Shown: piece by piece, positions 1-41,127 of the stretch | Position numbering within the stretch: position 1 is the stretch's first letter | Layout of the letters: the number at the start of each line of letters is the position of its first letter | Virus record (IMG/VR): IMGVR_UViG_3300030497_000005 | Length of the DNA: 41,127 nucleotides | Source of the DNA: a virus | Reading direction: 5' to 3' (one strand) | The notes under the pieces: generated by a model | What the model was told of the DNA's origin: nothing | Databases searched by the model: none | The model's input: only the letters and a program-made list of their open reading frames with translations | Program-made: the position numbers and the translations under genes

Positions 1-127
1 TAGTGAATAAAATCTTGCATATTTCCAAGGAGAAAAGGGGGCCATTTTCAGTGGAGGATTTGATTAAAGAGTACAAATTAACATTAAAAAAAATTAGAAA
101 ACAGAAAGTGGAATTGAAAACAAGAAT
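1..127. repeat. terminal direct repeat, left copy (identical to 41001-41127)
   Basis: Read directly: tagtgaataaaatcttgcat...gaattgaaaacaagaat occurs at both ends. Confidence 0.98.
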
Positions 128-644
128 TCAGCATCTTAGTTCCTATTTACAGAGAAATGTAGATTCCGATGAAGCATTTAAGGAAATGGATGTCTTGAAA
201 GCAGAATGTAAAACCTATTCGGAAATCGAAGGGGACTTACAATTTGCCTTGGAGTGGATGATGAATGGAAAGATGCCAGGATTGATTCGAGGAATTGAAA
301 GAAGGTCTGTTTATCAAAATACCAAATTAATGGATCCTTTGGATATGCAGCGCTATTTTAGAAGCAATGAAAATCCTTATGAATGGGATAAAGAAGAAAA
401 GGAACATGTCATTACCTTAACAGATAAAGAAAAGATAGAAAAATTACTTTCTGTTTTAACAGATACAGAAAGAGAAGTCTTTTTGATGAAGAAAGGAAAT
501 GCTTTATCTCTAGATAAGATTGCTTATGAATGGGGAATTTCTAAACAAACTGTTTCCAAAACATTAAAAAGAGCAGAAGCAAAGATGGCTAAACATGTAG
601 AGAATCTAAAGGAGTTGGGACAATGGAATTTGTACAGCCTATAA
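3..644 (+). CDS. late-gene transcriptional activator, sigma-70 region-4-like (ArpU/RinA/Xpf type)
   Basis: C-terminal LTDTEREVFLMKKGNALSLDKIAYEWGISKQTVSKTLKRAEAKM looks like a sigma region 4 HTH. It sits directly upstream of the HNH/terminase block. The frame opens after a stop at 40967-40969 across the junction. Possible starts are GTG 3 or GTG 51 (SD AAGGGGG 34-40). Confidence 0.65.
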   Translation: MNKILHISKEKRGPFSVEDLIKEYKLTLKKIRKQKVELKTRIQHLSSYLQRNVDSDEAFKEMDVLKAECKTYSEIEGDLQFALEWMMNGKMPGLIRGIERRSVYQNTKLMDPLDMQRYFRSNENPYEWDKEEKEHVITLTDKEKIEKLLSVLTDTEREVFLMKKGNALSLDKIAYEWGISKQTVSKTLKRAEAKMAKHVENLKELGQWNLYSL

Positions 645-1165
645 GAGATCCAGAATTGTTGGAGGAATTAAAGAAGCATTTAAAACAGAAGAATGAAAGA
701 GATTATGTCATGTTTATGGTGGGGATTAATACGGGATTCCGTATTTCTGATATCTTGTTGCTGAAAGTAAAAGATGTTCGTGGAGACAGAATTAACATTA
801 GAGAAAAGAAGACAGGGAAACCAAAGAATGTGGTGATTCGTCCAGCATTAAAGAAAGTGCTCAGAAGCTATATTGCCAATAAGAAGCCACATGAGTATTT
901 ATTTAAAAGCAGGAAAGGAAGGAATAAGCATTTAAGAAGAGAGTCTGCTTATTGCATATTAAAGAAAGCAGCAATGGAAGTTGGTATTGATGAGTTTGGT
1001 TCACATTCCATGCGTAAAACCTTCGGTTTCATGTTCTACAATCAGACCAAGGATATAGTGGCTTTAAGAAAATTATTTAATCACAGAGATGATTCTACAA
1101 CATTAAGATATATCGGGATGGACCAAGATAGGCTAGATGCTTTGATGCTAAAAATAAACATTTAG
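623..1165 (+). CDS. small tyrosine recombinase, catalytic domain only (180 aa)
   Basis: All catalytic signature residues are visible: TGFRISD (Arg I), KTGK (Lys), HSMRKT (His-x-x-Arg), NHRD...LRYI (His, Tyr). No N-terminal core- or arm-binding domain. Confidence 0.8.
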   Translation: MEFVQPIRDPELLEELKKHLKQKNERDYVMFMVGINTGFRISDILLLKVKDVRGDRINIREKKTGKPKNVVIRPALKKVLRSYIANKKPHEYLFKSRKGRNKHLRRESAYCILKKAAMEVGIDEFGSHSMRKTFGFMFYNQTKDIVALRKLFNHRDDSTTLRYIGMDQDRLDALMLKINI

Positions 1166-1177
1166 CATCTTTTTTTC
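1144..1177 (+). terminator. rho-independent terminator after recombinase gene
   Basis: GATGCTAAA (1144-1152) pairs with TTTAGCATC (1161-1169), 8-nt loop, followed by a T8 run. Confidence 0.7.
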
Positions 1178-1418
1178 TGCCCTTTTCTCTTCGAGAAAAC
1201 AACTATTTGTACATATGAATCTTTTAAAAATGTACAGGTATATTATTCGATTAAAAATATTTTATAAAGCCTTATGTATCAAGGTCTCACGACCTTTCGG
1301 TGAATCGCTCAGAATTACAAGATAAGAAAGATTCGCAAGAATCATGTTGACCTTTGCCACCTAATAGTGAGAAGAACAAACGAACGGCAGAAGCTTTAGG
1401 AAAGGATGGATGATAAAG

Positions 1419-1565
1419 ATGGCTAAGAAATCAAAAGAGATTAAAGTTGTTTGTGAAGATTGCGGAGCAACACCACCAATTCACCACGAGAAAAGCAATA
1501 AGAACTGGACAGTATATGAAACTAAGTGTGATAAATGCGGTGGGAAAACTAAGTTTGTTTTCTAA
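1419..1565 (+). CDS. 48-aa zinc-ribbon protein (not in ORF track)
   Basis: MAKKSKEIKVVCEDCGATPPIHHEKSNKNWTVYETKCDKCGGKTKFVF has two CxxC pairs. Weak SD (GGAAAGGA) upstream; an in-frame ATG at 1410 is also possible. Confidence 0.45.
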   Translation: MAKKSKEIKVVCEDCGATPPIHHEKSNKNWTVYETKCDKCGGKTKFVF

Positions 1566-1780
1566 CTAATTCCATTTGTCCTAATGGTGTGACTAGGACA
1601 TTAAATATAACGGCACACCTGGGAAGATTCGTATGTTTGTTGGGAAGAGCTTAAAGAAGCAATCGGGGCGAATCGGTTTGTAGCATTGGTTAGCTGCAGA
1701 CATTTGTTATCTGTGAACTGGATATTACTTAAAGCATTAGTATCTGGCTTAGAGACAATAAAGAAAAGTTGGTGGTGAGT

Positions 1781-2098
1781 ATGGCTTACACAACAGAGTA
1801 TCTGATACAGCTGATAAGAGATGATAAGCTCATTAAGTTCTATAAGAGCAGAGCATGGAAGGACCTAAGAGCAGTAGCATTAAAGCGTGATAACAATGAG
1901 TGCCAGAACTGTAAGAGTAAAGGCAGGTATCATAAAGCAGAGTGTGTTCATCACATCAAAGAAGTAAAGCCTTATCCTCAGCTGGCTCTTACACTTGATA
2001 ATCTTATGAGCCTTTGCAATGCATGCCATAACCAAGTACATGATCGTATGGTGAAGAGAAGAGTACAACCTAAGTTTGTTAATGAGGAGCGATGGTGA
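1781..2098 (+). CDS. HNH endonuclease (terminase-associated type)
   Basis: CQNCKSKGRYHKAECVHHIKEV...NLMSLCNACHNQVH is a classical HNH/zinc motif. ATG 1781 is preceded by TGGTGG; the track start is TTG 1769. It lies next to the terminase genes, as in cos/HNH phages. Confidence 0.9.
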   Translation: MAYTTEYLIQLIRDDKLIKFYKSRAWKDLRAVALKRDNNECQNCKSKGRYHKAECVHHIKEVKPYPQLALTLDNLMSLCNACHNQVHDRMVKRRVQPKFVNEERW

Positions 2099-2359
2099 AT
2101 GAAGACTGATAATGAATTATATATTGATGACTTTAATTGTTGGTTGAAAGAAAGTGAAACAAGGTTAGAGAAATTAAAGAATGATATCGAGTACAGCAAT
2201 AAGACAATAGCCTTGCAGCATGAGAGCATCTCACTTACTAAGAAACAATATGAAATTCATGTTGAACGAATGAATTTAGCTATTAAAGATCATAACGATT
2301 GGGCGAGAGATAAAGGAATTGAAGAAACAAAATTATTCGAAAACGACCTTGAAATTTAA
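2099..2359 (+). CDS. hypothetical coiled-coil protein
   Basis: The ATG abuts the HNH stop (TGAATG). Charged helical sequence with no recognisable motif. Confidence 0.55.
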   Translation: MKTDNELYIDDFNCWLKESETRLEKLKNDIEYSNKTIALQHESISLTKKQYEIHVERMNLAIKDHNDWARDKGIEETKLFENDLEI

Positions 2360-2527
2360 ATACCCCCCCATCAAAACTTTTGCCATTTTATAAGGAAAGG
2401 TGACAACGGGTATAGTTTGCAGGAAAAAACATTTTTCCGATTTTTGCATGAGTAGGGGGGCAGAAAACTGCATACAGGTGCAACCTCCAAAAAAAGGTGG
2501 CGAATTTTTACTTCTCAATGGTAGGAG
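2360..2527. other. candidate cos / terminase recognition region
   Basis: 168-nt non-coding gap directly upstream of terS. It contains a C7 run (2363-2369) and a G6 run (2455-2460), which are unusual for this AT-rich genome, plus four TGCA-containing short repeats (2416-2485). Confidence 0.3.
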
Positions 2528-2536
2528 GTGTCCAAT

Positions 2537-3040
2537 TTGAACAGAGTCAAAAAGAAGCACGAATTCGCTAAAATCGACTATTTGAACGGAATGACCTATC
2601 GAGAAATTGCCATAAAATATGGTGTTGCTTTGAATACCGTCAAGAGCTGGAAATTACGTCATAATTGGTCGAAAGAAAGTGCAACCGAGGATGGTGCAGC
2701 ACACCAAATTGAGGACGAACAAAGTCGTTATCAAGAGAATCGGGAAATAATTTTAAACAGCTTAGTGGAACAGTTGATTGCCAATGATACCAACCAACCT
2801 CATTATCGAGATTTGGTCGAAGATTATATGGCACTTTGGGATATCAAAAACAAATTAATTGCTGACATTACCGAAAGAGGGGTAGCCGTTACTTGGGAGA
2901 ATGGTAGTCAATCTGGCAAGAAGAAAAATGACAGTGTTAATGAACTGAATAAAACCAATAAGCAAATGTTAACACTACTTGCCGCATTAGGATTGCAAGC
3001 TACTGATCTTGAGAGGGACGATTCGGATGCGGACGTGTAG
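2537..3040 (+). CDS. terS: terminase small subunit
   Basis: N-terminal HTH (MTYREIAIKYGVALNTVKSWKLRHNW) and position before terL. SD AGGAGGTG (2523-2530) followed 6 nt later by TTG 2537. The track start GTG 2528 lies inside the SD. Confidence 0.75.
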   Translation: MNRVKKKHEFAKIDYLNGMTYREIAIKYGVALNTVKSWKLRHNWSKESATEDGAAHQIEDEQSRYQENREIILNSLVEQLIANDTNQPHYRDLVEDYMALWDIKNKLIADITERGVAVTWENGSQSGKKKNDSVNELNKTNKQMLTLLAALGLQATDLERDDSDADV

Positions 3041-4673
3041 TTATCATCCTTACATTGATGAATACATGGATATGGTTGACCAAGAACTAATTGAAACATG
3101 CGAAGAACATAAAATGTTGATGCATTTTTTAAGATGGAAACTAGACCAACCTAATGTAATTATCGATGCAGAAGCAATTGAAAAATCTATAACAGTGCCT
3201 GAGCCATACTTCCCCTTTAAGCTATTTCCATGGCAAAAATTTGTGAATGCTTTTATCTATGGTGTTCGTTACACAAATGGACAATTGGTATTTAACCGAT
3301 TTTTATTAGAACTAGGTCGTGGAGCAGGAAAGAATGGCTGGATATCATATAACGCTTTTCATATGATGTCCAAACATCATGGAGTAAAAAACTACGATAT
3401 TGATATAGTAGCTACTTCTGAAGGACAGGCTAAAACTTCTTTCGAGGATGTTTACAATGTAATTGATGATCCCAAGAACAATAAAACATTGAAAAAATCC
3501 TTTAAGCATACCAAGGTTTTAATACAACACAAAGTAACGAAATCAAAACTTGAGTTCAACACTTCTAATGCCAGAACAAAAGATGGTAAGCGGAGTGGGG
3601 TAGTAATTTTTGATGAGGTCCACGAATACGAAGATTACTCCAACATTAAAGTATTTACTTCTGGTTTAGGTAAAAAGAAAGATCCCCGAACTTTTTATAT
3701 CACAACAAATGGAAATATAAGGGGTGGGGTTTTAGATGATTTGAAGGAAGAAGCAAGGATGGTTCTTGCAAGAGAATTTCCTGAAAGCACATTGTTCCCA
3801 TTCATTTGTAAGTTAGACCATGAAGATGAAGTGGATAATATGGAGTTATGGGAGAAGGCAAATCCTTCTTTCCGATATAACCAGAACTTACAACACGAAA
3901 TGAAGCAAGAATATCATCTCATGAAGAAGAACAGTGCTCTGCGAATGGAGTTCATGACAAAAAGAATGAACTTACCGCAAGAGGATGTAAGAAAAGAAGT
4001 AGCAACATATAAAGACCGTTTGGCTACAGAACAACCAATTCCAAAACTACAAAACTTTGAAGCTATTGGCGGATTAGACTTTGCTCAAATCCGTGACTTT
4101 TGCTCTTGTGGTTTGTTATTAAAAGCAGACGGTAAAAGATATTGGTTACAACATACCTTTATGCATCATACTGCTCCAAAAACACAGGATATTAACGAAG
4201 ATATTATTAACTTAGCAATAAAAAAGAAACTTCTTACAGTAGTACACGATAAAACAATTAGTGCTGAACATGTTGTTAATTGGTTTGTTAAAGAAGCGAA
4301 AAAGTATCGCATCAAAAAAGTGTGTATGGATTTACATCGTTCCTCCATCTTAAAACCTGCCTTTGAAGAGGCTGGATTTGAAGTTGAGGTAGTTCGAAGA
4401 GGTATTGTAACTCACAGTTTATTATCACCATTGATTGACGAAATGTTTGTTAATAGAGAAATAGTATTTGGTGATGATCCATTGATGAGATGGTATGTAG
4501 GAAATGTTTATAAAGAAGAAAAGATGAATGGAAACATTGAATACAAAAAGATAGATGCAGAGAAGCGAAAGACTGACGGTTTTTTCGCTCTTACCCATGC
4601 CCTGAATTTCGATTCTGAGCTTACAGAGTATACACCAATTAAAGCAGGAGCATTTAAAGTGAAAACTTTCTAG
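3027..4673 (+). CDS. terL: terminase large subunit
   Basis: Walker A-like GRGAGKNG and Walker B VVIFDEVHEY; size about 550 aa. SD GAGAGGGA followed 8 nt later by ATG 3027, overlapping the terS end (track start 3009). Confidence 0.9.
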   Translation: MRTCSYHPYIDEYMDMVDQELIETCEEHKMLMHFLRWKLDQPNVIIDAEAIEKSITVPEPYFPFKLFPWQKFVNAFIYGVRYTNGQLVFNRFLLELGRGAGKNGWISYNAFHMMSKHHGVKNYDIDIVATSEGQAKTSFEDVYNVIDDPKNNKTLKKSFKHTKVLIQHKVTKSKLEFNTSNARTKDGKRSGVVIFDEVHEYEDYSNIKVFTSGLGKKKDPRTFYITTNGNIRGGVLDDLKEEARMVLAREFPESTLFPFICKLDHEDEVDNMELWEKANPSFRYNQNLQHEMKQEYHLMKKNSALRMEFMTKRMNLPQEDVRKEVATYKDRLATEQPIPKLQNFEAIGGLDFAQIRDFCSCGLLLKADGKRYWLQHTFMHHTAPKTQDINEDIINLAIKKKLLTVVHDKTISAEHVVNWFVKEAKKYRIKKVCMDLHRSSILKPAFEEAGFEVEVVRRGIVTHSLLSPLIDEMFVNREIVFGDDPLMRWYVGNVYKEEKMNGNIEYKKIDAEKRKTDGFFALTHALNFDSELTEYTPIKAGAFKVKTF

Positions 4674-4688
4674 GAAGGTGGTGAGATT

Positions 4689-5861
4689 ATGGGGTTTATA
4701 GACTGGTGTTTAGGCCTTTTTAGAAGTGATGACGGAACTGTTAATCTTAAAGATTACCATTATGAATTAAGCGTTAAAGCTTATGCGAAAAAGCTGGCTA
4801 TTGAAACATGTATAGATATTATTGCAAAGACTTTAGTTCGTTGTGAATTTCAAACATTTGAAAAAGGAAAAGAAACAATCGGCAATAATTATTATTTGTT
4901 AAATGTTTCTCCTAATGACAATCAGAATGCCAGTGAGTTCATTCACTCCTTGGTAAACAAACTCATTAAGAATAATGAATGTTTAGTCATAATGCAAAGT
5001 GATCAATTATTTGTAGCAGATGCTTTTACCAGAACAGAATATGCTTTAAAAGAAAATGAGTATACAAATGTAACAGTTAAAACTTTGAGCTTTAATAAAG
5101 TGTTTTTCGAAAGTGATGTTTTGTATTTCAAGTTAAACGATTCCAATATTATGAGCGTTATCAATGAGCTTCATGAGGATTACGGAAAGATATTAGATTC
5201 CGCAATTAAAATCTATAAACGTTCTAACGCAAAAAGAGTGATAGTTGAAGGGGATTTCTTAAGGCCACAATCGGATGAACATCAAGCTGCTATTGATGAG
5301 ATGTTTAACACTCAATTCAAAAGCTGGTTCGAAGCTGATAATGCTGGAGCGGTTTTTCAATTACAAAAGGATTATAAATTAACAGATGTAAGTGGAAATG
5401 GGAAAAGTGGAACCCCCACAACAAACAGCCGAGATATTAGGGCGGTAATGGAAGATATTTTTGATTTTATCGCAATGGCTTTTCATGTACCAAGAGGTAT
5501 GTTGAAAGGTGATTTAGCAGACGTTGATAAGCAGACAGACAACTTTTTAATGTTTGGCATTTTGCCATTAATTGAATTAATTACAGATGAGTTCAATCGA
5601 AAAATGTACAAAAAGGAAAGTTTTTTAGATAGAACATATCTGAAAATGGATTCATCCAAGATAAAGATTCTTGACATTGTAAACTTAGCAACTGCAGCAG
5701 ATAAGTTCTTTGCTATAGGAGTTAACAATATTGATGATAACTTACGAATGTTAGGAAGGGAGCCTTTGAATGAAGACTATTCACAGAAAAGATATGTTAC
5801 TAAAAACTATGAATCTGTTGATGCCATTGGCAAGGAGTCGAAGGGAGGTGAAGGGATATGA
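4689..5861 (+). CDS. portal protein (HK97-type)
   Basis: 390 aa, positioned between terL and the prohead protease. Its end overlaps the protease start by 4 nt. Confidence 0.8.
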   Translation: MGFIDWCLGLFRSDDGTVNLKDYHYELSVKAYAKKLAIETCIDIIAKTLVRCEFQTFEKGKETIGNNYYLLNVSPNDNQNASEFIHSLVNKLIKNNECLVIMQSDQLFVADAFTRTEYALKENEYTNVTVKTLSFNKVFFESDVLYFKLNDSNIMSVINELHEDYGKILDSAIKIYKRSNAKRVIVEGDFLRPQSDEHQAAIDEMFNTQFKSWFEADNAGAVFQLQKDYKLTDVSGNGKSGTPTTNSRDIRAVMEDIFDFIAMAFHVPRGMLKGDLADVDKQTDNFLMFGILPLIELITDEFNRKMYKKESFLDRTYLKMDSSKIKILDIVNLATAADKFFAIGVNNIDDNLRMLGREPLNEDYSQKRYVTKNYESVDAIGKESKGGEGI

Positions 5862-6589
5862 AAATAAGACGTTACAAAAATGAGCAATTCAATAAGCTGG
5901 CTGAAATTACACCGCAGTTTAAAGCAGAAACAAAAGAGGATGTTTCTAAATTAACTATATATGGAGATATCGGTCAATCATGGTGGGGAGATTCTATTTC
6001 AGCCAGTCAGATTGAGCGCGCATTAAAGGACATTAGTTCCGATACCATTCATGTTCATTTAAACAGTGGTGGTGGTGATGTATTCGATGGTATAGCTATC
6101 TATAACCAATTGAAAAATCACAGTGCTAAAATTGTAATTCACGTTGAAGGGTTGGCTGCCAGTGCAGCATCTTTAATATTATGTGCTGCTGATGAAGCTA
6201 TCGTTTATACAGGGGCAATGGTTATGATTCATGAAGCTTCTACTGGAGTATGGGGAACAAAGGCCGATATCAAGAAAACATTAAATGCATTGGAAGGTAT
6301 AGATAAATCCATCGCTGATATCTATATGACTAAGTTCCAAGGAGAACGTGACGATGTTGTAAAAATGATTGAAAATGAAACTTGGTTTACAGCAGGTGAA
6401 GCAGTTGATTTCGGTTTAGCTGACCAAGTCGATGAGACTCAAGTAACTACAACCGAAGAAGATCCAGAGGATTTTAAAAATAGCGTACTTGAAAAAATCC
6501 GAAACAGAAACAGTGACAATAACAATACTCAATTACCTAAACCAAACAATGGCATATTAAATAAATTCAAACGCGTATCAGGTGAATAG
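5858..6589 (+). CDS. ClpP-like prohead maturation protease
   Basis: NSGGGDVFDGIAIYNQL, GLAASAASLILCAAD (Ser) and MIHEAS (His) match the ClpP/S14 signature. Confidence 0.9.
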   Translation: MKIRRYKNEQFNKLAEITPQFKAETKEDVSKLTIYGDIGQSWWGDSISASQIERALKDISSDTIHVHLNSGGGDVFDGIAIYNQLKNHSAKIVIHVEGLAASAASLILCAADEAIVYTGAMVMIHEASTGVWGTKADIKKTLNALEGIDKSIADIYMTKFQGERDDVVKMIENETWFTAGEAVDFGLADQVDETQVTTTEEDPEDFKNSVLEKIRNRNSDNNNTQLPKPNNGILNKFKRVSGE

Positions 6590-6624
6590 GCGTTTTTTCT
6601 ATGCTCAAAAATAGGAGGATTCTA

Positions 6625-7848
6625 ATGAAACAAACTTATAAAAATCATACAAACTCTTTTCTAAAACTTAATTTACAACTTTTTGGCGGTATTAAGAATT
6701 TAGATAACAATAAACCTGTTATCCAAAATAAGGATGCACAGATAGCTGCTATGCAAGCTGCCTTTGAAGAAGGCGATGCGAAAATTGTTGCTGAAAAGCT
6801 GCTGGAAAACTTTGAAACCAATTTTGTTCACTTCCAAGGGATGGTTGAAGATGTAGTAAAAGATGCGAAAAGAGCAAAAGAAGAAAATTGGGATGCAAGT
6901 GTACTAGCAACTCGCGGTGTACGAGTTTTAACTAGTGAAGAAAAGAAATTCTACAACCAAGTAATTGAAGTGCAGTCATTCAGCGAAGTGCAAAAACTGA
7001 TGCCGCCAACTGTGTTCGAAAGAGTATTCGAAGACCTTACTATTGAACATCCTTTGTTGTCTAAAGTTAATTTCCAAACAACAGGAGCAACTACAGCTTG
7101 GGTACTTCGTAAGCCAGGGGCAACTACAGCGTTTTGGGGAGATGTAACATCTGCCATTCAACAAATGGTGGACGAAGGATTCTATACTGTTGAGCAAGGT
7201 ATGTTCAAACTTAGCGGATTCTTAGTTGTATCTAAAGCTATGTTTGAACTTGGACCTGAATGGTTAGACCGTTATGTCCGCACATTCTTGCAAGAGGTTA
7301 TTTCGGCAGAGCTAGAAGAGGTTATTGTTGTAGGTACAGGTAATAAACAACCAATCGGAATGATTCGCGACCTTGAAGGTGCTGTTGTAGGTGGTGTTTA
7401 TCCTGAGAAAACAAAAATTGAAATGACAGACTTCACACCAAAAGAAATTGGAGAAAAGATTCTTGCTCCAACTACTAAAAACGGTACTCGCCGTTATACA
7501 GGTGTAACGATTATTATCAACCCACTTGATTATGCAACTAAGCTCTTCCCATTAGGAACGAAGCGGAAAGATGATGGAACTTGGACTTATGATAATTTCT
7601 CTGTACCGGGCTTAGAAATTATTCAATCACCTTCTGTTCCTTTAAATACAATGATCACTGGGAAACCAAAAGATTACTTTATGGGTGTAGCAAGTGAACA
7701 AAAAATCGAAACAACAGATGTATTGCGTATGATTGAAGACCAACGCTTATACCTTGTGCGCCAACTTGCAAACGGTCGTCCACTTGATGCTGATTCATTT
7801 ACAGTATTTGATATTACAAATCTAGGTGACACTACACCAACACCTTAA
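6625..7848 (+). CDS. major capsid protein (HK97 fold family)
   Basis: About 407 aa, follows the protease, with an N-terminal helical delta-like region. SD AGGAGG (6613-6618) followed 6 nt later by ATG 6625 (track start 6601). Confidence 0.85.
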   Translation: MKQTYKNHTNSFLKLNLQLFGGIKNLDNNKPVIQNKDAQIAAMQAAFEEGDAKIVAEKLLENFETNFVHFQGMVEDVVKDAKRAKEENWDASVLATRGVRVLTSEEKKFYNQVIEVQSFSEVQKLMPPTVFERVFEDLTIEHPLLSKVNFQTTGATTAWVLRKPGATTAFWGDVTSAIQQMVDEGFYTVEQGMFKLSGFLVVSKAMFELGPEWLDRYVRTFLQEVISAELEEVIVVGTGNKQPIGMIRDLEGAVVGGVYPEKTKIEMTDFTPKEIGEKILAPTTKNGTRRYTGVTIIINPLDYATKLFPLGTKRKDDGTWTYDNFSVPGLEIIQSPSVPLNTMITGKPKDYFMGVASEQKIETTDVLRMIEDQRLYLVRQLANGRPLDADSFTVFDITNLGDTTPTP

Positions 7849-33453: not shown

Positions 33454-33455
33454 AT

Positions 33456-34332: not shown

Positions 34333-34347
34333 CGCGCGAATATAAAT
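34333..34347. promoter_or_regulatory. CGCGCG box C (CGCGCGAATATAAAT), preceded by GCGCG-TTT-CGCGC hairpin
   Basis: Read directly, in the gap between the cro-like gene and the next ORF. Confidence 0.45.
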
Positions 34348-34388
34348 TATTGCGATTTGTCAGTATTTGTAGATGGGAGGAATTCAGA

Positions 34389-34709
34389 ATGATGAACACT
34401 AAATTAAGAATTTCTACAGACCAAAGTCAAATAGTTGTACACGCGATTAAAGAGTTAATTCCTTCTTTAAATAAAGGAGAAGTTAGTCAGTTTAAGATGG
34501 CAGCAGTTAAATTCAGGGATGAAGAAATTTATGTTGATGGTATTTCAATGAGATGTGCAGAAAGAGCTTTATTAGAAAAGGCATCTAAGTCAGAGTACAA
34601 GCTTACTAGACTCATTCTAAAAAACCTTGCTGGATCCATTGAAGAACAAAGAGAACACTTCCAAGAACAATTTAAAGAACAATCAATGAAACAAATATTT
34701 GCTGGTTAA
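34389..34709 (+). CDS. hypothetical early protein
   Basis: SD GGGAGG followed 8 nt later by ATG 34389 (track start 34350). Confidence 0.6.
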   Translation: MMNTKLRISTDQSQIVVHAIKELIPSLNKGEVSQFKMAAVKFRDEEIYVDGISMRCAERALLEKASKSEYKLTRLILKNLAGSIEEQREHFQEQFKEQSMKQIFAG

Positions 34710-34721
34710 GGAGTGATTTGA

Positions 34722-34958
34722 ATGCCCTATGAATCTAAAAAGTACAAAGAAAGAAAAAGGCGTAAAGAATTTGGTCATCTCCTTAGACAAACAAGAGCAG
34801 AGAAAAACTTATCTAAGGAAGCAGCAGCAATGTATTTAGGAATCTCAATTGAAACATTAGAGCGAATAGAACAAGGCAGTGTTTCTCCAGATATACCTAA
34901 TTTATCAAGGAAGGTTGATAAATTAAAGGATAGAGAGAAGATGCTGATTGCGCTATGA
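34722..34958 (+). CDS. XRE-type HTH protein
   Basis: LLRQTRAEKNLSKEAAAMYLGISIETLERIEQG is an HTH motif. Confidence 0.7.
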   Translation: MPYESKKYKERKRRKEFGHLLRQTRAEKNLSKEAAAMYLGISIETLERIEQGSVSPDIPNLSRKVDKLKDREKMLIAL

Positions 34959-35224
34959 GTAAAGATAAAGATTGGCCGAAAACCTGTTACGTCGAGTTTT
35001 TTAGAGAAAAAACACAGAGTGTATGTCATTGGGGATTTCAAGCAGATAATGCAAAGGGATTGTATTTTAAATTACAAAAAATGAACTTCAAAGCAGATGA
35101 TATCTTTTTCTTTTATCAAAATGGTATTTCTTTATCAAAAGATGAAATTAAAAAAGTCGTTGAATGGGTGGAGAAAAAAAGAAAGGAGCAAGAAGGTGCA
35201 AAAGGTAAACTTCAAAAAAGCTAG
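34955..35224 (+). CDS. hypothetical early protein
   Basis: Start overlaps the previous stop (ATGA). Confidence 0.55.
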   Translation: MSKDKDWPKTCYVEFFREKTQSVCHWGFQADNAKGLYFKLQKMNFKADDIFFFYQNGISLSKDEIKKVVEWVEKKRKEQEGAKGKLQKS

Positions 35225-35342
35225 TACAGGCCAGTTGCTTCAGATAATAAACGAAGAAGATTGCAGCAGGATATATAAAGTGAAAGCATATTTAGCGCTT
35301 TTGGCAAAGGCAATAAAGGGTGGGAAAAGAAATGGGATATGA
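35196..35342 (+). CDS. hypothetical 48-aa protein
   Basis: SD AAAGGAG followed 7 nt later by GTG 35196. The longer track ORF from 35097 overlaps the previous gene out of frame. Confidence 0.4.
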   Translation: MQKVNFKKASTGQLLQIINEEDCSRIYKVKAYLALLAKAIKGGKRNGI

Positions 35343-35511
35343 TCTACAAGCCAAAGAAGGCAGCGTGAACTTAGTTATTAATGGAAAAGTGGAGCAAATA
35401 CTTGCTCCAGAAACAGGCTTTGGAGAATGCCATATTAAATGGGTAAACGGAAGAATTGTTGAAGCTAAGGAAATTAAAAGTAAGCGATTTGATAAGAAAA
35501 CAGGAGGTTAG
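35332..35511 (+). CDS. hypothetical early protein
   Basis: ATG 35332 after AAGGGTGG (track start 35320). Confidence 0.5.
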   Translation: MGYDLQAKEGSVNLVINGKVEQILAPETGFGECHIKWVNGRIVEAKEIKSKRFDKKTGG

Positions 35512-35520
35512 GGGTTGAAG

Positions 35521-35709
35521 ATGGTGAGAAGGTATGTTGCTGAGACTAAATATAATACTTCTTCGCAAAGAAAACCGTTACTGGTTATCACTGTTTATCC
35601 TGAGTCTGACAATCTTAATTCAGTAGAAAGAGATATTGGTATCTTAACAGCACGTAAAGGAATCCTTAGGAGCAAGAAAAATAATCAGTTTAAATATAGA
35701 GATATATAA
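35521..35709 (+). CDS. hypothetical early protein
   Basis: ATG 35521 after TAGGGG (track start TTG 35515). Confidence 0.5.
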   Translation: MVRRYVAETKYNTSSQRKPLLVITVYPESDNLNSVERDIGILTARKGILRSKKNNQFKYRDI

Positions 35710-35726
35710 AGAAAGGAGAATAAACG

Positions 35727-36461
35727 ATGCTTTACACATACGATCCATACACCAATATATTGTTAGAAACCAGTTATGAAGAATTAAAAAAAATAACAGG
35801 TTTGAATCCTTCAAGATTAAAATCCTTCATTGCAAAAAGTAAAAAAGTCCCGAAATTTAATTTTTATATTACTGAAAAAAACATTTCTATAGAACAAAAG
35901 AAAATTTGGTATGCAAGGGAAAATTATGAAAATGAATGCTGGAAACAAATATCTAATACTGATTATTTGATTTCAAGTTATGGTCGTGTAAAAAGAAAGT
36001 TCAAAAGGTTTGGAGAACTAATTTTACCACTATTCGATAAAAGAGACGGCCAGATGTTTGTGAACCTCAACATTAACGGTAAGGGACAACGGTTCTACAT
36101 TTCCAGATTAGTCGCAGAGTACTTTCTTGATAAACCAAGTGATGAACAAAAGAAACTCGTTTATCACAAGAATCGGATTAAAACAGATAATTACTTTCTA
36201 AATCTAACTTATTTGTCCAGAAGTGAATTGAGTCGTCTTACGGTTGCTAAGTCAAGAAGCAAAGCAGTTGTAGAAATAGATGAAACTACTCTTGAAGTGA
36301 TTGAAGAGTATAGATCCGCAAAAGAAGCAGCTGAAAAAACATTTATGAGCCATACCATAATTTTGAAATGTTGCCAAGGGAAAGTCAAATACGCTTGTGG
36401 TAAAAAGTTCATGTTGGAATCAGATTACTTAAAAATAATAGGAAAGAAACAGGTATCTTAA
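35727..36461 (+). CDS. free-standing HNH homing endonuclease (NUMOD4 + HNH_3 + NUMOD1/IENR1-like)
   Basis: CWKQISNTDYLISSYGRVKRKF (NUMOD4-like), VYHKNRIKTDNYFLNLTYL (H-N-N) and VVEIDETTLEVIEEYRSAKEAAEKTFMSHTIILKCCQGK (C-terminal DNA-binding repeat). Confidence 0.8.
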   Translation: MLYTYDPYTNILLETSYEELKKITGLNPSRLKSFIAKSKKVPKFNFYITEKNISIEQKKIWYARENYENECWKQISNTDYLISSYGRVKRKFKRFGELILPLFDKRDGQMFVNLNINGKGQRFYISRLVAEYFLDKPSDEQKKLVYHKNRIKTDNYFLNLTYLSRSELSRLTVAKSRSKAVVEIDETTLEVIEEYRSAKEAAEKTFMSHTIILKCCQGKVKYACGKKFMLESDYLKIIGKKQVS

Positions 36462-36570
36462 CATGAAGCTTTTCAAAGGGTGTTTAATTGCTGCAATACC
36501 ATCTGTTGTTTTATGGTCCTTGTTTATATATTTAGTTTTTTCATTAATAAAGTGAAAGGATTGAGTGGAA

Positions 36571-36921
36571 ATGCCTTTTCCTAAGTTAGAAAAGCCTGAA
36601 ATATTCACAGCAGAACAATATAAAGCGTGGAAAGCTGATGGACTTACGGATGCTTATATAAGAGAAGAGATTCTTTTTGTGGGGAAGGAAATTTTAAATC
36701 GATGGAAAGCAGAAGTAGGGTTTCAAACATCAAATGGAAAGATGCTTGGTGTCAGAAAAGCGAATCAACCCATCATTAAAAGAGAAGATGTATTGCGCCT
36801 TTTAAGCAAAGGAGTAACAAAGAAAGCTATTGCTAAGAGATATGGATGTACTCAAAGGCATATCAGAAATATCGCAAATAATTATGGAAAAGGGATGAAA
36901 TCTAATGAACAAACAATATGA
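36571..36921 (+). CDS. hypothetical protein with C-terminal HTH
   Basis: LSKGVTKKAIAKRYGCTQRHIRNIANNYG. Confidence 0.55.
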   Translation: MPFPKLEKPEIFTAEQYKAWKADGLTDAYIREEILFVGKEILNRWKAEVGFQTSNGKMLGVRKANQPIIKREDVLRLLSKGVTKKAIAKRYGCTQRHIRNIANNYGKGMKSNEQTI

Positions 36922-37453
36922 AATGGTAAAAGATTTTCAAACGAAAATGGGGCAACCAGTAGCAGGAAGACCAACAGTAATGGGTATCAAGCGAATGCAA
37001 GAAAGGTTTGTTTATCTGGAAGAAGAACTAAATGAATTTGCTGTTGCTGAAACAGTAGTAGATCAAGCTGATGCAATGATTGATCTCATTTATCTTGCTA
37101 TAGGAACACTAGTGGAATTAGGAGTGCAGCCAGAGAAATTGTTTGAAATTGTACATAATGCCAACATGTCTAAGTTATGGGAAGATGGTAAACCAAGAAC
37201 GAACCCTGAGACAGGGAAAATTATTAAACCACCAACATTCGTAAGACCAGAACCATTGCTACAAAAAGAAATCGAACGTCAGTCAACGTTTTGGATTGAT
37301 GCAGTATCAAGATATTTTCCAGAAGTCACAAAACAGGAAATTGAATTTATTCTTTGGGAAAAAACAGCATACCCACTAGGGAGTGCCGCAACTGTAGAGC
37401 AGCAATTAAAAGATTTGAAAGATGAAATAGAAGCAAAAAGCGAAACGAAATAA
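36905..37453 (+). CDS. MazG-like nucleotide pyrophosphohydrolase
   Basis: YLEEELNEFAVAETVVDQADAMIDLIYLAIGT carries the acidic ExxE...D motifs of the all-alpha NTP pyrophosphatase fold. Confidence 0.65.
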   Translation: MNKQYEMVKDFQTKMGQPVAGRPTVMGIKRMQERFVYLEEELNEFAVAETVVDQADAMIDLIYLAIGTLVELGVQPEKLFEIVHNANMSKLWEDGKPRTNPETGKIIKPPTFVRPEPLLQKEIERQSTFWIDAVSRYFPEVTKQEIEFILWEKTAYPLGSAATVEQQLKDLKDEIEAKSETK

Positions 37454-37508
37454 CCGCGCAATTGTACAATTATGCGCGGTAAAAAATCTAAATAAGGAGC
37501 AAATCAAA

Positions 37509-38000
37509 ATGCCAAATTGGAGCGAAGGAACTTTAAAAATTAGAGGAACAAGAGCAAATATTAAAAGATTTTTAACTGAAGGAATAGAACCATTACCTAG
37601 CTTAAAGGACCAAATCGCAGCAATGCGAGGACAAGAAGTCGAGCAACCTAAATTAAAAATTGAGGAAGATGAGTACGACTTAACTATAAGTGCTGATAAT
37701 GGAATTTATATAACAGGAACTAGAAGAGCATTCATTGAGCAAGATATTGTTTGGGACTTTGATGATAAGCATGAGGAAGTTTTAGTGATTAATAACTTCA
37801 AGCAAGCATGGGGTGTTGATGCTCAATCATTTGCTGATATATCCAAAAAGTTTGATATCGACATAAGAATATACGTGTTTGAATGCGGAATGGAGTTCAA
37901 TCAGGAAATTGAAATTCATAAGGGTAAAGTAATTACAAATAAGGAGATAAAGTTTAAAGATTATGCTTGGGATTGTGTTTTTCCTAACTTAGGAGGTTGA
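37509..38000 (+). CDS. hypothetical protein with MPNW N-terminus (DUF1281/Api92-like?)
   Basis: MPNWSEGTLKIRGTRANIKRFL resembles the N-terminus typical of that family. Weak call. Confidence 0.5.
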   Translation: MPNWSEGTLKIRGTRANIKRFLTEGIEPLPSLKDQIAAMRGQEVEQPKLKIEEDEYDLTISADNGIYITGTRRAFIEQDIVWDFDDKHEEVLVINNFKQAWGVDAQSFADISKKFDIDIRIYVFECGMEFNQEIEIHKGKVITNKEIKFKDYAWDCVFPNLGG

Positions 38001-38107
38001 TGTTTTTTGAGTCAATCACAAGAAGAAAAATCTCTGAAGGAAATCGAATTAGAATATACAATGCGTGAGCAGCTTACAATTTATCATTTTATCGGAGGTT
38101 TGTAATT

Positions 38108-38293
38108 ATGGAAAAAACATTTTTTGTGCAGATAGATGGGTTAGAACCTATTGTTGTATCCGTTAAAGATGATGTAAACAGACCTAACAATATGGACTGT
38201 CACAGTGCCTTAGAAGAATGGAAAACTTATAATTTCGGTTACAGAAAATACGATTATTGGGAAATTGATACTTGCGAAAAACACAATATTTAA
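38108..38293 (+). CDS. hypothetical early protein
   Basis: ORF with SD GGAGG upstream. Confidence 0.5.
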   Translation: MEKTFFVQIDGLEPIVVSVKDDVNRPNNMDCHSALEEWKTYNFGYRKYDYWEIDTCEKHNI

Positions 38294-38355
38294 AGAGGAG
38301 TAATAAAAAATGAGAACTGTTCTTCATTTTATTGGAGTCTGGATAGGGTTAGAGC

Positions 38356-38556
38356 ATGAAAAATAAACCATGGTATAAAAAAGAATATGCTCTTTATAAG
38401 GGTGACAACTTTATAACTATAGGCACCATTAGAGAAATCAGCAAGGAAACTGGTAAAAGTATTGATTTCCTTAGATGGATGACATATCCAGCATATGAGA
38501 GACGTATCAAGAACAGTAATGACAGAAGTAAGTTAGTACTTATCGAGGATGATTAG
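38356..38556 (+). CDS. hypothetical early protein
   Basis: ORF in the same orientation as the operon. Confidence 0.5.
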   Translation: MKNKPWYKKEYALYKGDNFITIGTIREISKETGKSIDFLRWMTYPAYERRIKNSNDRSKLVLIEDD

Positions 38557-38606
38557 AAGAAATCATCCTTTCTTCAAAAGAAGATAAGAAGAAAGGAAGA
38601 AGCAGA

Positions 38607-38933
38607 TTGAATATACAACAATCATGTGAAATATTGGAGCAAATGCTCGCAGATGATATTGATAAAAGCCGATTAAGCACAAAGGAATCTACGGCTTTGA
38701 ACGTATTATTATTTGAAATAGCTTTAACTGGTCAGTATGTATTGCCTGAGAAGTTCATTCTGAAAGATATGTATGATAAGCCTTTGAATGGTGGGTATAT
38801 CTGCAGCAAACATGGAGTTGGATATAAAGGTAAATGTCCAACTTGTGCCAGCATAGAAAATCCTCCAAGGAAAATAAAGAGACAAGGTAAGTTAATCAGA
38901 CAGACTATCAGAAAATCCAATCGAAAAAGATAA
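38607..38933 (+). CDS. hypothetical protein, basic C-terminus
   Basis: TTG start after AAAGGAAG; CSKHG...CPTC. Confidence 0.45.
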   Translation: MNIQQSCEILEQMLADDIDKSRLSTKESTALNVLLFEIALTGQYVLPEKFILKDMYDKPLNGGYICSKHGVGYKGKCPTCASIENPPRKIKRQGKLIRQTIRKSNRKR

Positions 38934-38945
38934 GGAGTGTAAAAA

Positions 38946-39275
38946 ATGCATGAAAATGAATTAGATACATTCCTTAAAGACTTACTGCAAGATATGAAAT
39001 ATGCGCTTGATGAGGAAGACCAAGTTATTACTGTTTCTTCAAAAGATGTCAACAAGGTAACAAGATTAATTAACAGAAACAAACGAAGAGACTCTTTATT
39101 GGTGCAGCGTGAAAGGTGCCAAGAATTATTTGAAAGAAAGTACATCGCCTATAGAGAAATGCTGGTATTCATATATGAGTTATTAGAAGAAGAAAATACT
39201 TTAAAAAGAGATCTTAAATGTTCTTTACAAGAAGAGCAAGGCGATTTCACATTCGAGGAAAACGAGGGTGAATAA
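38946..39275 (+). CDS. hypothetical early protein
   Basis: SD AAGGAG upstream. Confidence 0.5.
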   Translation: MHENELDTFLKDLLQDMKYALDEEDQVITVSSKDVNKVTRLINRNKRRDSLLVQRERCQELFERKYIAYREMLVFIYELLEEENTLKRDLKCSLQEEQGDFTFEENEGE

Positions 39276-39708
39276 AATGAAGGAAATAAAGCTACATAGC
39301 AAGTGTCCAAAATGCGGAAACGTCAATAATGTCTCAGAGTCAGAAACAAAGATGTATATTCATTGCCAGTGCTGCTATCATCATTATGATTTTAAGATTA
39401 ATGACATTAAAAGTCGAATTACAAAAGATTCAAATGGAGTAAGTAGTTATTTGGGTGTCTATATTGATGAAATGGACTGGCTAGTGGAGCAAGCAGAAAA
39501 AGTGGAGCCATTAATTAAGATTGCTTTATGGAATATCATCGCTATGATTCATAACAAAGATAACAGATATAAGGCTTTAGTCGAATTAAAAGAAGTAGTA
39601 GGGAATAATACAAAGTTCAGCAGCTTTATTGAAGAGACAATAAATGAGTTAAAGGAGAAAGAGAAAAATGAGCAACCAAGCAATTGTTCCAAAAACAAGA
39701 AAAAGTGA
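39268..39708 (+). CDS. hypothetical protein with N-terminal zinc ribbon
   Basis: CPKCGN...CQCC. Confidence 0.5.
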   Translation: MNKMKEIKLHSKCPKCGNVNNVSESETKMYIHCQCCYHHYDFKINDIKSRITKDSNGVSSYLGVYIDEMDWLVEQAEKVEPLIKIALWNIIAMIHNKDNRYKALVELKEVVGNNTKFSSFIEETINELKEKEKNEQPSNCSKNKKK

Positions 39709-40036
39709 AATGGTTTGGAATAAGGGATTAGGCATTTATTTATTACCAAAAGAAAATGCACAACCAGTAGTGGACATTAATGCTGATGTAATTATTGCTA
39801 AAGCAGCTGAAGCTTTCACTGCCTTTGAAGGAAAAAAGGATGATCCAATCGGAAAGAATGTAAGAGCTCTTAGTTTGCTCGAGCATTTCCCAGAATTACT
39901 AAGGGTAGCAACCGAGCAACAAAAACATATCGAAATAATCAAAGAAGAAAATGAAGCTCATTTAACTGCCAGGGAGGAACTTTGGAGACAAGAAGCTTTA
40001 AACCTTGCTGTCATGTATGAAGAAGAAAACCTTTAA
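39668..40036 (+). CDS. hypothetical early protein
   Basis: SD AAGGAGAAAGAG upstream. Overlaps the previous gene's end by 41 nt, so the real start is uncertain. Confidence 0.45.
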   Translation: MSNQAIVPKTRKSEMVWNKGLGIYLLPKENAQPVVDINADVIIAKAAEAFTAFEGKKDDPIGKNVRALSLLEHFPELLRVATEQQKHIEIIKEENEAHLTAREELWRQEALNLAVMYEEENL

Positions 40037-40045
40037 GGAGATAGC

Positions 40046-40228
40046 ATGAACAAAACAATAGAAGAAATTTTGTGGTGGGTGTTCCTTTATGTAAGTTGTG
40101 GGATCATCCACTTATTTATTAAAATCTGGACCATTCCATTTGGATTCCTCATCTATATGCAAAAGGATAATGCCATGTACAACATTTTCTATTGGCCTGT
40201 CATTTTAATTAGAGACATATTTCTTTAA
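40046..40228 (+). CDS. small membrane protein
   Basis: Two hydrophobic helices; SD AAGGAG. Confidence 0.5.
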   Translation: MNKTIEEILWWVFLYVSCGIIHLFIKIWTIPFGFLIYMQKDNAMYNIFYWPVILIRDIFL

Positions 40229-40260
40229 GGGAGGAGATTGTTATTTTCACAGAAAAAGAA

Positions 40261-40455
40261 TTGAAAATAATTGATACTTGCCACAACGGAGACTTTAGAG
40301 GGATATGGAGTGTAAATCCAGATGGCAGTTTAAGCATAGATGTATTTGATTTATACAAAGGAAAAGATGAACATTTTTTAGTAAAAGAAGATGGATTTAT
40401 TGTAAAAGAAACAATATTAGTTTGGTGCTTAGATTATATACATAGCTGGATTTGA
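40261..40455 (+). CDS. hypothetical early protein
   Basis: The TTG 40261 start has no SD. The strong SD GGGAGGAG (40229-40236) is instead followed after 6 nt by an in-frame ATT at 40243, so the start is uncertain. Confidence 0.45.
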   Translation: MKIIDTCHNGDFRGIWSVNPDGSLSIDVFDLYKGKDEHFLVKEDGFIVKETILVWCLDYIHSWI

Positions 40456-40478
40456 GTGAGGTCTGGCCGGAAAACCGG

Positions 40479-40535
40479 AGGACATCAACCCATGAAGAGA
40501 AACTATTCTCTTTTTGGTTTGGTGTCCTTTTTATT
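40479..40535 (+). terminator. strong terminator at end of early operon
   Basis: Compound hairpin AGGACATCAACCC...AAGAGAA-acta-TTCTCTT...GGTTTGGTGTCCT followed by TTTTTATTT. Confidence 0.75.
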
Positions 40536-40606
40536 TGTTTAAAACGGTGTCGCTGAGAAGCCCTACAGCGCAATTAACTTTTTATTAATGAGGAGTTGTT
40601 CATTCG

Positions 40607-40804
40607 ATGCAACAGAAGAAGCCTAGTCGTACTAACCAAAATAAGAAAAGAAAGATGGAATTTGAATTTCAATGGAAAGTCAGTGCCCTTCGCCAAGATA
40701 AACGGACAGGACCGACAAGAATTTTCCCAAGAGATCCTTATACACAATATCTCATAGAAGAAGAGACAAAACGTATCAATCCAAGTCGTGGACTTGACAA
40801 ATAA
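40607..40804 (+). CDS. hypothetical basic 65-aa protein
   Basis: SD GAGGAG lies 11 nt upstream of the ATG. Confidence 0.45.
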   Translation: MQQKKPSRTNQNKKRKMEFEFQWKVSALRQDKRTGPTRIFPRDPYTQYLIEEETKRINPSRGLDK

Positions 40805-41000
40805 AACCTGTATTTTTATACAAAAATCTCGTGCTGTGAATAATACGGCTTTATGTAAACTAGCTATATCGAAAAGTTGTCATATCAAGGATGAAAAAAG
40901 GCGCAAAAAAGCCAAAATACCCAAAATCGTATACAGGATTTCATACATCCTTGATAAACAGCCATTTAGCAAAATAAACCAGCAACGAAAACAAGCAAAA

Positions 41001-41127
41001 TAGTGAATAAAATCTTGCATATTTCCAAGGAGAAAAGGGGGCCATTTTCAGTGGAGGATTTGATTAAAGAGTACAAATTAACATTAAAAAAAATTAGAAA
41101 ACAGAAAGTGGAATTGAAAACAAGAAT
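41001..41127. repeat. terminal direct repeat, right copy (identical to 1-127)
   Basis: Read directly. Most simply an assembly overlap of a circular or circularly permuted molecule. Confidence 0.98.

Follow-up and report, generated by a model that had tools for sequence, protein, structure and literature searches.

How can a temperate phage be passed on through the divisions of its host if its genome encodes no recognizable integrase? The question is raised by the viral record IMGVR_UViG_3300030497_000005, a sequence of 41,127 nt (the window, by which we mean the whole stretch of DNA that was analyzed). In it a full set of virion, packaging and lysis genes, assigned with PHROG from an HNH endonuclease gene through to the endolysin gene, is found together with genes of the kind used for plasmid maintenance, namely an Alp7A-type actin-like ATPase and a replication initiator (Rep) with iterons inside its own gene, and with an arbitrium module for the decision between lysis and lysogeny. 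Among the open reading frames (ORFs) scanned we detected neither a canonical integrase nor a serine recombinase or transposase. Because replication and partition genes are present and no canonical integrase was found, we favor, with a probability of about 0.7, the reading that a temperate HK97-type siphovirus is represented here by its complete genome and would persist in lysogeny as a circular plasmid of low copy number, controlled by arbitrium, probably in an uncultured member of the Bacillaceae. The argument for this reading is anatomical and comparative, and an episomal state is what it predicts.

A first-pass annotation, made from the letters and their ORFs alone, had already described the window as a phage-plasmid without an integrase. 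The core of that description is kept here as the best-supported reading, because an integrase/replicon swap is seen relative to the integrating phage BtCS33 and because experimentally confirmed plasmid prophages have an analogous layout. Two of the supports it had been given are lost, however: the assignment of the initiator to the RepA_N family and the use of an FtsK-type ATPase as a plasmid marker. The arbitrium module was absent from that account altogether.

The integrase slot in related phages and plasmids

BtCS33 has a backbone that runs in the same order as that of the window: lysis genes, an FtsK/Replic_Relax pair, a lysogeny slot, an AimR-like gene with a small ORF, cI, cro and early genes, continuing into a late regulator with a 180-aa recombinase, an HNH gene and the terminase genes TerS/TerL. 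What fills the slot between FtsK/Replic_Relax and the AimR-like gene differs, being an integrase of 366 aa in BtCS33 and Alp7A with Rep in the window. The early operon of BtCS33 also contains an O-like/DnaC-like pair, neither member of which is found in the early operon of the window. The two genomes have diverged considerably (52% identity for the small recombinase and 31-37% for FtsK and Replic_Relax), and their virion modules are unrelated (TerL 24% identical). They nevertheless offer a natural comparison, the same backbone being equipped either with an integrase and an O/DnaC-like pair or with an initiator and a partition cassette, that lends itself to the study of switches between integrative and episomal lysogeny in temperate phages. 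We consider this clean integrase/replicon swap on a common backbone, together with the mosaic initiator described below, to be the main value of the window.

The layout is not peculiar to a single assembly. In seven metagenomic relatives of 34-64 kb Rep adjoins AimR and there is no canonical integrase in that block, in those parts of the sequences that were read, and the relatives share synteny from the lysis genes through Rep to the terminase. The closest of them (JGI 3300011140, 39.3 kb) is 81% identical to the window in TerL, 84% in the small recombinase and ~74% in Rep. The partition cassette differs among these relatives, and some have, in addition, an Xer-like recombinase encoded between tail and lysis genes. 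With at least seven related metagenomic contigs, the window adds an uncultured lineage from outside the Bacillus cereus group to the arbitrium-controlled phage-plasmids.

As a concept this is not new, since siphoviral plasmid prophages that carry arbitrium and are partitioned by ParM have been described before (IEBH, B83, Waukesha92-like). IEBH, Bp8p-C and B83 are experimentally confirmed plasmid prophages partitioned by ParM (PMC8026635; IEBH and B83 also in PMC11526630), several putative groups of plasmid prophages carry just a lone replication initiator (PMC8026635), and arbitrium has been described in B83, RBClin15 and a Waukesha92-like phage-plasmid (PMC6669507, PMC11526630, bioRxiv 10.1101/2025.11.23.689978). 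Phage-plasmids have been reported as making up to half of Bacillus phages or plasmids (PMC11652158). The B. cereus-group plasmid prophages with which we compared the window (IEBH, the B83/BMBtp14 lineage, Waukesha92/phiS58-like elements and RBClin15) share with it a siphovirus virion, a ParM/Alp ATPase with a small adaptor, a lone initiator, located on the lysogeny side beside AimR/AimP with cI and cro following, and the lack of a lambda-type integrase in the lysogeny module. In BMBtp14, for instance, the order is partition genes, an Xer-like recombinase, a DnaD-like initiator, an AimR-like gene and cI/cro. The differences from this group are also substantial. No nucleotide similarity to its members, or to anything else in the phage and plasmid collections searched, was detected by a megablast of 24300-41000, and the window initiator is unrelated to theirs at the BLAST level. 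The head and packaging genes of the window are of the HK97/HNH type, headful packaging being the mode listed for IEBH and B83, and the window is without a full-length Xer-type recombinase. Its host, too, probably lies outside the B. cereus group.

The isolate with the closest virion module is Bacillus carboniphilus SaN35-3, in plasmid unnamed2 (NZ_CP129015.1), TerL and the major capsid protein being 73% identical. This record was deposited as a 47-kb circular plasmid and has FtsK/Replic_Relax, AimR/AimP, cI, cro and an O-like initiator in the same slot. It differs from the window in that the initiator is another one and no Alp7A homolog was detected. Its early operon has an extra replisome organizer with an IstB-like loader, and the plasmid also encodes IS200/605 transposases and an Xer-like recombinase of 316 aa.

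The partition cassette of the window begins with a gene for a small XRE-family helix-turn-helix (HTH) protein (27757-27987, plus strand), which is followed by a palindrome with 20-nt arms (28045-28097; arms 95% complementary) that is a candidate centromere or operator. Next come the gene for the Alp7A/ParM-type actin-like ATPase (28122-29294, plus strand) and one for a candidate adaptor of 127 aa that overlaps the ATPase stop codon (29291-29674, plus strand). The first-pass annotation had recognized an actin-like ParM cassette here, and profile searches bear it out: the ATPase exceeds the Pfam cut-offs for both of its actin-fold families (ALP_N, 42.6 bits versus 26.3; Alp7A_like_C, 47.3 versus 22) and matches phrog_691 "partition protein" at 3.8e-46. 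The nearest relatives of this ATPase are encoded by ParM/StbA genes of Bacillaceae plasmids, at 41-50% identity, and, as the closest phage homolog, by BMBtp14, whose partition protein shares 44% identity with it. The candidate adaptor matches phrog_24940 and, weakly, a MazE/AbrB-like family (E 0.0056); upstream of the ATPase gene we found the one palindrome and no iteron array.

An FtsK/SpoIIIE-like ATPase (25598-26761, minus strand; PF01580 4e-24, phrog_1358) is indeed encoded near the replicon, as had been stated, next to a Replic_Relax protein (24943-25629, minus strand; PF13814 1.9e-14). Homologous pairs occur in the B. carboniphilus plasmid, in metagenomic relatives and in BtCS33, and the RBClin15 phage-plasmid has an FtsK/Replic_Relax operon (PMC11526630). 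The pair is not a plasmid marker, because the integrating BtCS33 has it too. The Replic_Relax protein falls in phrog_2190 "replication initiation protein", and Rep is therefore not the only candidate replication protein of the window, which the first-pass annotation had held it to be. We found no experimental basis for this PHROG label of Replic_Relax. The locus also gives a weak NCBIfam match to plasmid TraB (3e-5).

The initiator, its origin and the switch beside it

What kind of initiator is Rep? In an AlphaFold2 model of the protein (330 aa; 30015-31007, minus strand), a winged helix predicted with confidence forms the N-domain, residues 141-208 are a disordered linker and the C-domain is helical. 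This build is shared with RepA_N initiators such as those of pSK41 and of the B. wiedmannii SR52 plasmid, which have a winged-helix N-domain, a central region with iterons and a C-domain, and Rep had been called RepA_N-like. That label did not survive the profile searches. RepA_N initiators have the PF06970 N-domain, and the N-domain of Rep does not match it: Pfam gave no RepA_N match for Rep or for its relatives P0002, P0007 and P0010, and NCBIfam gave none for Rep or P0010. A profile search of the PDB reached the pSK41 and pTZ2162 RepA N-domains only if the profile included a true RepA_N sequence, and an N-domain-only profile found no RepA structure there. In a Foldseek search of the PDB, the RepA N-domains 4PQL, 5KBJ and 4PT7 appeared at E 0.05-0.13 amid generic winged-helix proteins. 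With no family match and a fold similarity that is weak and non-specific, membership of Rep in the RepA_N family was rejected. The N-domain has the winged-helix character of the O-like superfamily. Rep matches phrog_9773 "replication initiation O-like" at 9.7e-5, and the N-domain-only profile recruited 1,553 proteins from 1.84 billion representatives; among the 80 of these that were scanned, 66 match phrog_9773, 62 match phrog_428 "replication initiation protein" and none matches RepA_N. The top viral fold matches of the model in BFVD are phage replication proteins and replisome organizers.

The rest of the protein points to plasmids. An hhalign comparison of Rep with the B. wiedmannii plasmid initiator, which is a bona fide RepA_N protein (PF06970 at 2.4e-19), gave a probability of 98.8% over an alignment that runs from the recognition helix and wing through to the C-terminus, and over the C-domain (residues 220-321 of Rep) the two proteins share 48% identity. 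On these domain matches, Rep is a mosaic in which a phage-O-like N-domain is joined to a plasmid-RepA-like origin and C-domain. The earlier claim that a plasmid replicon stands in place of phage replication genes is consequently upheld for position, regulation, C-domain and iterons, all of which are plasmid-like, but not for the N-domain; as worded it is too strong, because an N-domain of this type is common in phages. A full-length homolog, 36% identical to Rep, adjoins Alp7A on a 60-kb Scopulibacillus contig that also carries a MobA/L relaxase and type IV secretion system genes, and in the 21 kb of this contig that were read there are no phage genes. A scan of GTDB genomes for Rep relatives returned Scopulibacillus only. 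Because its homolog sits on such a contig, the initiator family serves plasmid-like elements as well as phages. The Geobacillus phage GR1 (OK896991.1, 79 kb) has an ALP_N gene at 321-1145 and a "DNA replication protein" at 4437-5381 whose C-domain is 57% identical to that of Rep, as well as gyrase and topoisomerase IV genes. GR1 may be another phage-plasmid, or its actin-like protein may be used in lytic growth.

Replication probably starts inside the rep gene, at a candidate origin core (30389-30526) that consists of an AT-rich tract (30389-30457) and iterons (30457-30526). The latter are three tandem units of 23-24 nt, each an internal dyad, in the DNA that encodes the linker of the initiator, and it is in the central part of the gene that RepA_N origins have theirs. 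The first-pass annotation had noted iterons within the gene, and their dyad is not a random one: the exact form GAAGTT-N9-AACTTC occurs twice in the 41-kb window, both times inside rep, against an expectation of 0.02. Tandem dyads with a spacing of ~24 bp occupy the same place in the rep genes of four relatives (L005, L010, L012 and L013), and a fifth (L011) has one copy. The RepA_N gene of the B. wiedmannii SR52 plasmid (NZ_CP032366.1, 137 kb) contains three near-identical dyads, GA[A/G]GT[T/G]-N9-AACTTC, at 5785-5864. The iterons of the two genes are thus near-identical, yet the N-terminal DNA-binding domains of the two initiators are of different families.

How might the supply of the initiator be limited? 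Upstream of rep lies a structured leader (31016-31255, minus strand; minimum free energy z-score -5.7) that is a candidate attenuator, in which the rep Shine-Dalgarno sequence lies within a terminator-like hairpin (31037-31016) that has T8 behind it and is flagged by the terminator scan. Several helices of this leader, the hairpin among them, are conserved, four pairs showing compensatory changes. Antisense to it our promoter and terminator scan predicts a countertranscript RNA of ~110-130 nt (31098-31232, plus strand). Its promoter (31065-31093) agrees with the consensus at 11 of 12 positions, its terminator lies at 31204-31221 with a T-run behind it, and its strand folds with a z-score of -4.5 relative to shuffled sequence. 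Five relatives have the -35 and -10 elements of this promoter unchanged, within leaders that are otherwise 65% identical. Further upstream, a gene for a small HTH protein of 97 aa (31310-31603, minus strand; Pfam HTH_26 4e-6) is a candidate for a Cop-like repressor of rep. A small ORF is present at the same position in L005, L012, L017 and L018, with 32-45% identity to the window protein in the last three and none detected in L005. In plasmids such as pIP501 and pSK41, a Cop repressor and a countertranscript make up the copy control, and the antisense RNA control exerted by RNAI of pSK41 is what the candidate RNA of the window resembles. The arrangement of leader, antisense RNA and small HTH gene thus resembles plasmid-type Cop/countertranscript copy control, and such a layout would be unexpected if the initiator belonged to a lytic early operon.

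The other obvious comparison is with lambda O and the replisome organizers of Firmicutes, which share with Rep the superfamily of the N-domain and the presence of iterons and an AT-rich tract in the region that codes for the linker. Unlike lambda O, rep lies outside the early operon, beside a partition cassette and divergent, with candidate Cop/antisense control, and unlike lambda O and the replisome organizers Rep has no partner helicase loader and has a C-domain common to plasmid RepA proteins. A more specific scenario can be put together from these observations, which we offer tentatively and regard as doubtful in its full extent. In it, an O-type DNA-binding domain would have been combined with the iteron origin and C-domain of Bacillus RepA_N initiators and with plasmid-style control, and the hybrid would have been swapped in, along with the partition cassette, at the slot that sister phages use for an integrase, a single initiator then serving both maintenance and lysis with arbitrium deciding between them.

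The arbitrium module lies between rep and the early genes. Its receptor AimR (31716-32849, plus strand) scores 224 bits against NF038310 lysogeny_AimR, for which the cut-off is 70, and matches Pfam AimR (PF22871) at 1.3e-32. The adjoining ORF for the AimP pre-propeptide (32917/32953-33123, plus strand) has a hydrophobic signal-like segment and a short C-terminus, DPGGGRT, which would be released by processing. Then follow an AimX-like ORF of 52 aa (33251-33409, plus strand), identified by gene order and by a motif conserved across relatives, and, by gene order, a cI/AimC-like repressor gene (33456-33806, minus strand) and a cro/AimL-like gene (34111-34305, plus strand), with operator palindromes at 33978-34036. 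The extended arbitrium module has been defined as AimR, AimP, AimX, AimC and AimL (bioRxiv 10.1101/2025.11.23.689978), and the region 31716-34305 fits it in gene order and in the conserved motif of the small ORF. By analogy with the studied modules, this one is likely to be the lysis-lysogeny switch. The AimP candidates of relatives keep a DPGG core with differing tails (DPGGSGE, DPGGMG, DPGGGGGH; also GPGGGAG), and because the tails differ around the core the variants suggest private signaling channels.

Plasmid lysogeny and its alternatives

If the window is a phage-plasmid, what would its life cycle look like? After infection the DNA would circularize and be kept as a low-copy plasmid prophage. 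The initiator would bind the three dyad iterons beside the AT-rich tract, so that replication would start inside its own gene, and the C-domain that it has in common with Bacillus RepA_N plasmid initiators might recruit the host replisome. The same initiator probably also drives lytic replication, because the phage encodes no recognizable helicase, loader, primase or polymerase. The small upstream HTH repressor and the antisense RNA, acting on the structured leader, would limit how much initiator is made, and filaments of the Alp7A-type protein, working with the downstream adaptor and the upstream palindrome, would segregate the copies. The extended arbitrium module, if it works as its studied homologs do, would choose between lysis and plasmid lysogeny, and the 180-aa recombinase would belong to the late/packaging neighborhood. 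If these roles are as predicted, candidate parts for vectors in poorly tractable Bacillaceae would be the rep-ori fragment (1.8 kb) and the Alp7A cassette (2.2 kb).

A number of points weigh against plasmid lysogeny. Replicating, concatemeric or permuted phage DNA would give a circular assembly just as well. The N-domain of Rep is, by its sequence matches, of a type common in ordinary phages; lambda O, moreover, has its origin inside its own gene. With an O-like N-domain, the intragenic origin of lambda O and the use of RepA_N initiators by integrated satellites, a rep gene by itself does not imply plasmid maintenance. In the partition cassette, the adaptor and the centromere are candidates, and the recombinase of the window, which by eye looks catalytically complete, is a possible integrase. 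Among the relatives, L005 (ENA SHEN23-1_SAMN35319035_METAG-scaffold_16, 63,719 bp), whose Rep is 79% identical and the closest outside the window's own cluster, was read over 18028-39023; its scaffold is ~20 kb longer than a genome of the size of the window, and the other ~43 kb might be a larger virion module, an over-length assembly or host DNA. In addition, two relatives have contigs (47.5 and 34.5 kb) that stop within or beside the interval from lysis to partition genes, and that of a third (39.3 kb), judging from gene spacing, does so as well. A branch point in the assembly graph could account for such ends. In the readable parts of the relatives there are no host flanks.

Could the phage instead integrate into the chromosome, by means of its 180-aa recombinase (perhaps with host factors) or of host XerCD, with Rep and Alp7A acting only after excision? 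This tyrosine recombinase (623-1165, plus strand) matches PF00589 at 4.8e-27 and phrog_216 at 2e-64, and a string search, judged by eye, puts the beginnings of the motif strings with the candidate catalytic residues (R, K, H-x-x-R, H and Y) at positions 38, 61, 127, 152 and 161 of the protein. The protein also matches NCBIfam NF007371 (FimB/FimE-type) at 6.5e-12, and FimB/FimE-type invertases are functional without an N-terminal domain. Some members of its family, which comprises more than 4,800 homologs, all of ~180 aa among those listed, lie on Mb-sized chromosomal contigs, and integrated PLE satellites are known to use RepA_N-type initiators (PMC7145576). It nevertheless consists of the catalytic domain alone, PF00589 being its only domain, and has neither the core-binding nor the arm-binding N-terminal domain of a lambda-type integrase. 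The ORF immediately upstream (3-644) was considered as a frame-shifted or split integrase N-terminus and rejected, being a sigma-like factor by PHROG, Pfam and NCBIfam. In both integrating phages that we checked the small recombinase coexists with a canonical integrase (366 aa in BtCS33, 382 aa in S. pneumoniae phiARI0131-2), and because of this coexistence it is unlikely to be the lysogeny integrase, in agreement with the first-pass view of the protein as too small for that role. In every phage and relative examined, furthermore, it is encoded upstream of HNH-TerS-TerL and never in the lysogeny module. The best match in the window to the B. subtilis dif site has 10 mismatches, which is worse than in shuffled sequence. 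A genome-wide repeat search for attP arms or recombinase sites yielded chance-level short matches besides palindromes of the operator or centromere type, and no long arm-type repeats, as had been noted. A partition system, finally, has no role in an integrated prophage, and we regard integration as improbable. Where annotation exists for the Bacillus, Streptococcus, Clostridioides and Listeria phages that have the small recombinase, its gene adjoins an ArpU-type or sigma-like late regulator; a 10-kb contig at NCBI carries a recombinase 98% identical to that of the window. Full-length XerC/D-like recombinases (316-332 aa) are encoded in L013 (15768-16766), L014 (40524-41474) and L008 (17728-18696); in the relatives and comparators such genes lie among the late tail genes or between tail and lysis genes, where the window has none, and they may be multimer resolvases.

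It is also conceivable that no stable plasmid lysogens are formed at all, Rep being a lytic initiator like lambda O, the actin-like protein a remnant or a means of positioning DNA during lytic growth, and the integrase simply lost, which would leave the phage lysogeny-defective or pseudolysogenic. That the relatives of the Rep N-domain are overwhelmingly labeled as phage "O-like" or "replication initiation" proteins, that its fold matches are phage replication proteins and that GR1 combines an actin-like gene and an initiator of the same C-domain type with gyrase and topoisomerase genes would all suit such a phage. It would, however, hardly be expected to retain an arbitrium, cI and cro module that is complete and intact, which argues that lysogeny is under selection. 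Nor does it account well for a rep gene that is divergent from the early lytic operon and has its own conserved antisense promoter and a small HTH gene upstream, for a partition cassette of canonical operon form whose nearest relatives are on plasmids, or for a layout of Rep beside AimR that has been kept in seven diverged relatives; on balance we think it unlikely. A third alternative is a chimera, made in assembly, of a phage and a plasmid fragment. Positions 1-127 are an exact copy of 41001-41127, which gives the circle of 41,000 bp that had been proposed, and 127 is a common assembler k-mer size, so that an overlap of this length is an assembler remnant in what is, after all, a metagenomic sequence. 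Contigs of a related phage from an independent assembly (L015/L016; JGI 3300012274, NCBI GCA_032053365.1) are, however, collinear with 40461-41127 followed by 1-1380, and because they run collinearly across the end-to-start junction the latter represents real sequence continuity. A contig at ENA from another sample matches the window at 99.66% identity over 8,994 bp (26717-35702), a stretch that takes in the partition cassette, Rep, AimR and early genes, and across the rep region a Logan contig reaches 100% identity. Independent assemblies also bear out the gene order, and the lysis-Rep-terminase synteny of the relatives speaks against a fusion in the same way. As independent contigs match both the modules and the junction, chimerism is very unlikely. 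Plasmid lysogeny under arbitrium control is the reading that we retain.

Virion, late and early genes

The virion and lysis modules are complete, as the first-pass annotation had found, and are encoded on the plus strand throughout. By PHROG they comprise an HNH endonuclease (1769-2098), TerS (2528-3040), TerL (3009-4673), the portal (4689-5861), a ClpP-type protease (5858-6589), the HK97-type major capsid protein (6601-7848), connectors (7869-9659), the major tail protein (9659-10240), an ORF in the chaperone position (10256-10777), the tape measure (10931-14161), Dit (14181-15014), Tal (15023-16936), fiber/receptor-binding proteins (16936-22672), two holins (22749-23024 and 23027-23275) and the endolysin (23408-24304). 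Matches to phrog_10, phrog_94, phrog_12, phrog_9, phrog_117, phrog_1272 and phrog_33 mark the phage as an HK97-type siphovirus, and the orthologous major capsid protein of relatives matches PF05065. TerL is 73-74% identical to those of the B. carboniphilus plasmid and phage BMBtp13 and 72% to that of Geobacillus phage PK5.2. The HNH/TerS/TerL packaging module is read as cos-type. A 103-aa ORF between the major capsid and connector genes (7869-8180) matches PHROG "Arc-like repressor" families, and an ORF with the same label, gp13, is found at the equivalent position in S. pneumoniae phiARI0131-2; given this conserved location in the head module, the label looks doubtful.

The ORF upstream of the small recombinase gene (3-644, plus strand) encodes a sigma-like late transcription factor, matching phrog_1190 "RNA polymerase sigma factor" at 1.7e-42, Sigma70_r4_2 and NCBIfam NF005385 (156 bits, cut-off 136). 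Its likely start is near position 51, behind an AAGGAG ribosome-binding site. An Rfam scan of the window at gathering thresholds and a tRNA scan found nothing.

The early rightward block (34350-40455, plus strand) was scanned with Pfam and PHROG, and consists of HTH regulators and small ORFs without an assigned function together with a MazG-like pyrophosphohydrolase gene (36905-37453, plus strand) and a NUMOD4/HNH homing endonuclease gene (35727-36461, plus strand). The scans gave no helicase, primase, polymerase, DnaC-like or DnaD-like match in the block, in accord with the earlier argument, drawn from the ORF list, that no ORF there exceeds 244 aa and that no such replication enzyme is encoded. 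The largest early ORF is the 244-aa homing endonuclease, and L005 and BMBtp14 encode homologs of it at the corresponding location, with 51% and 38% identity, respectively.

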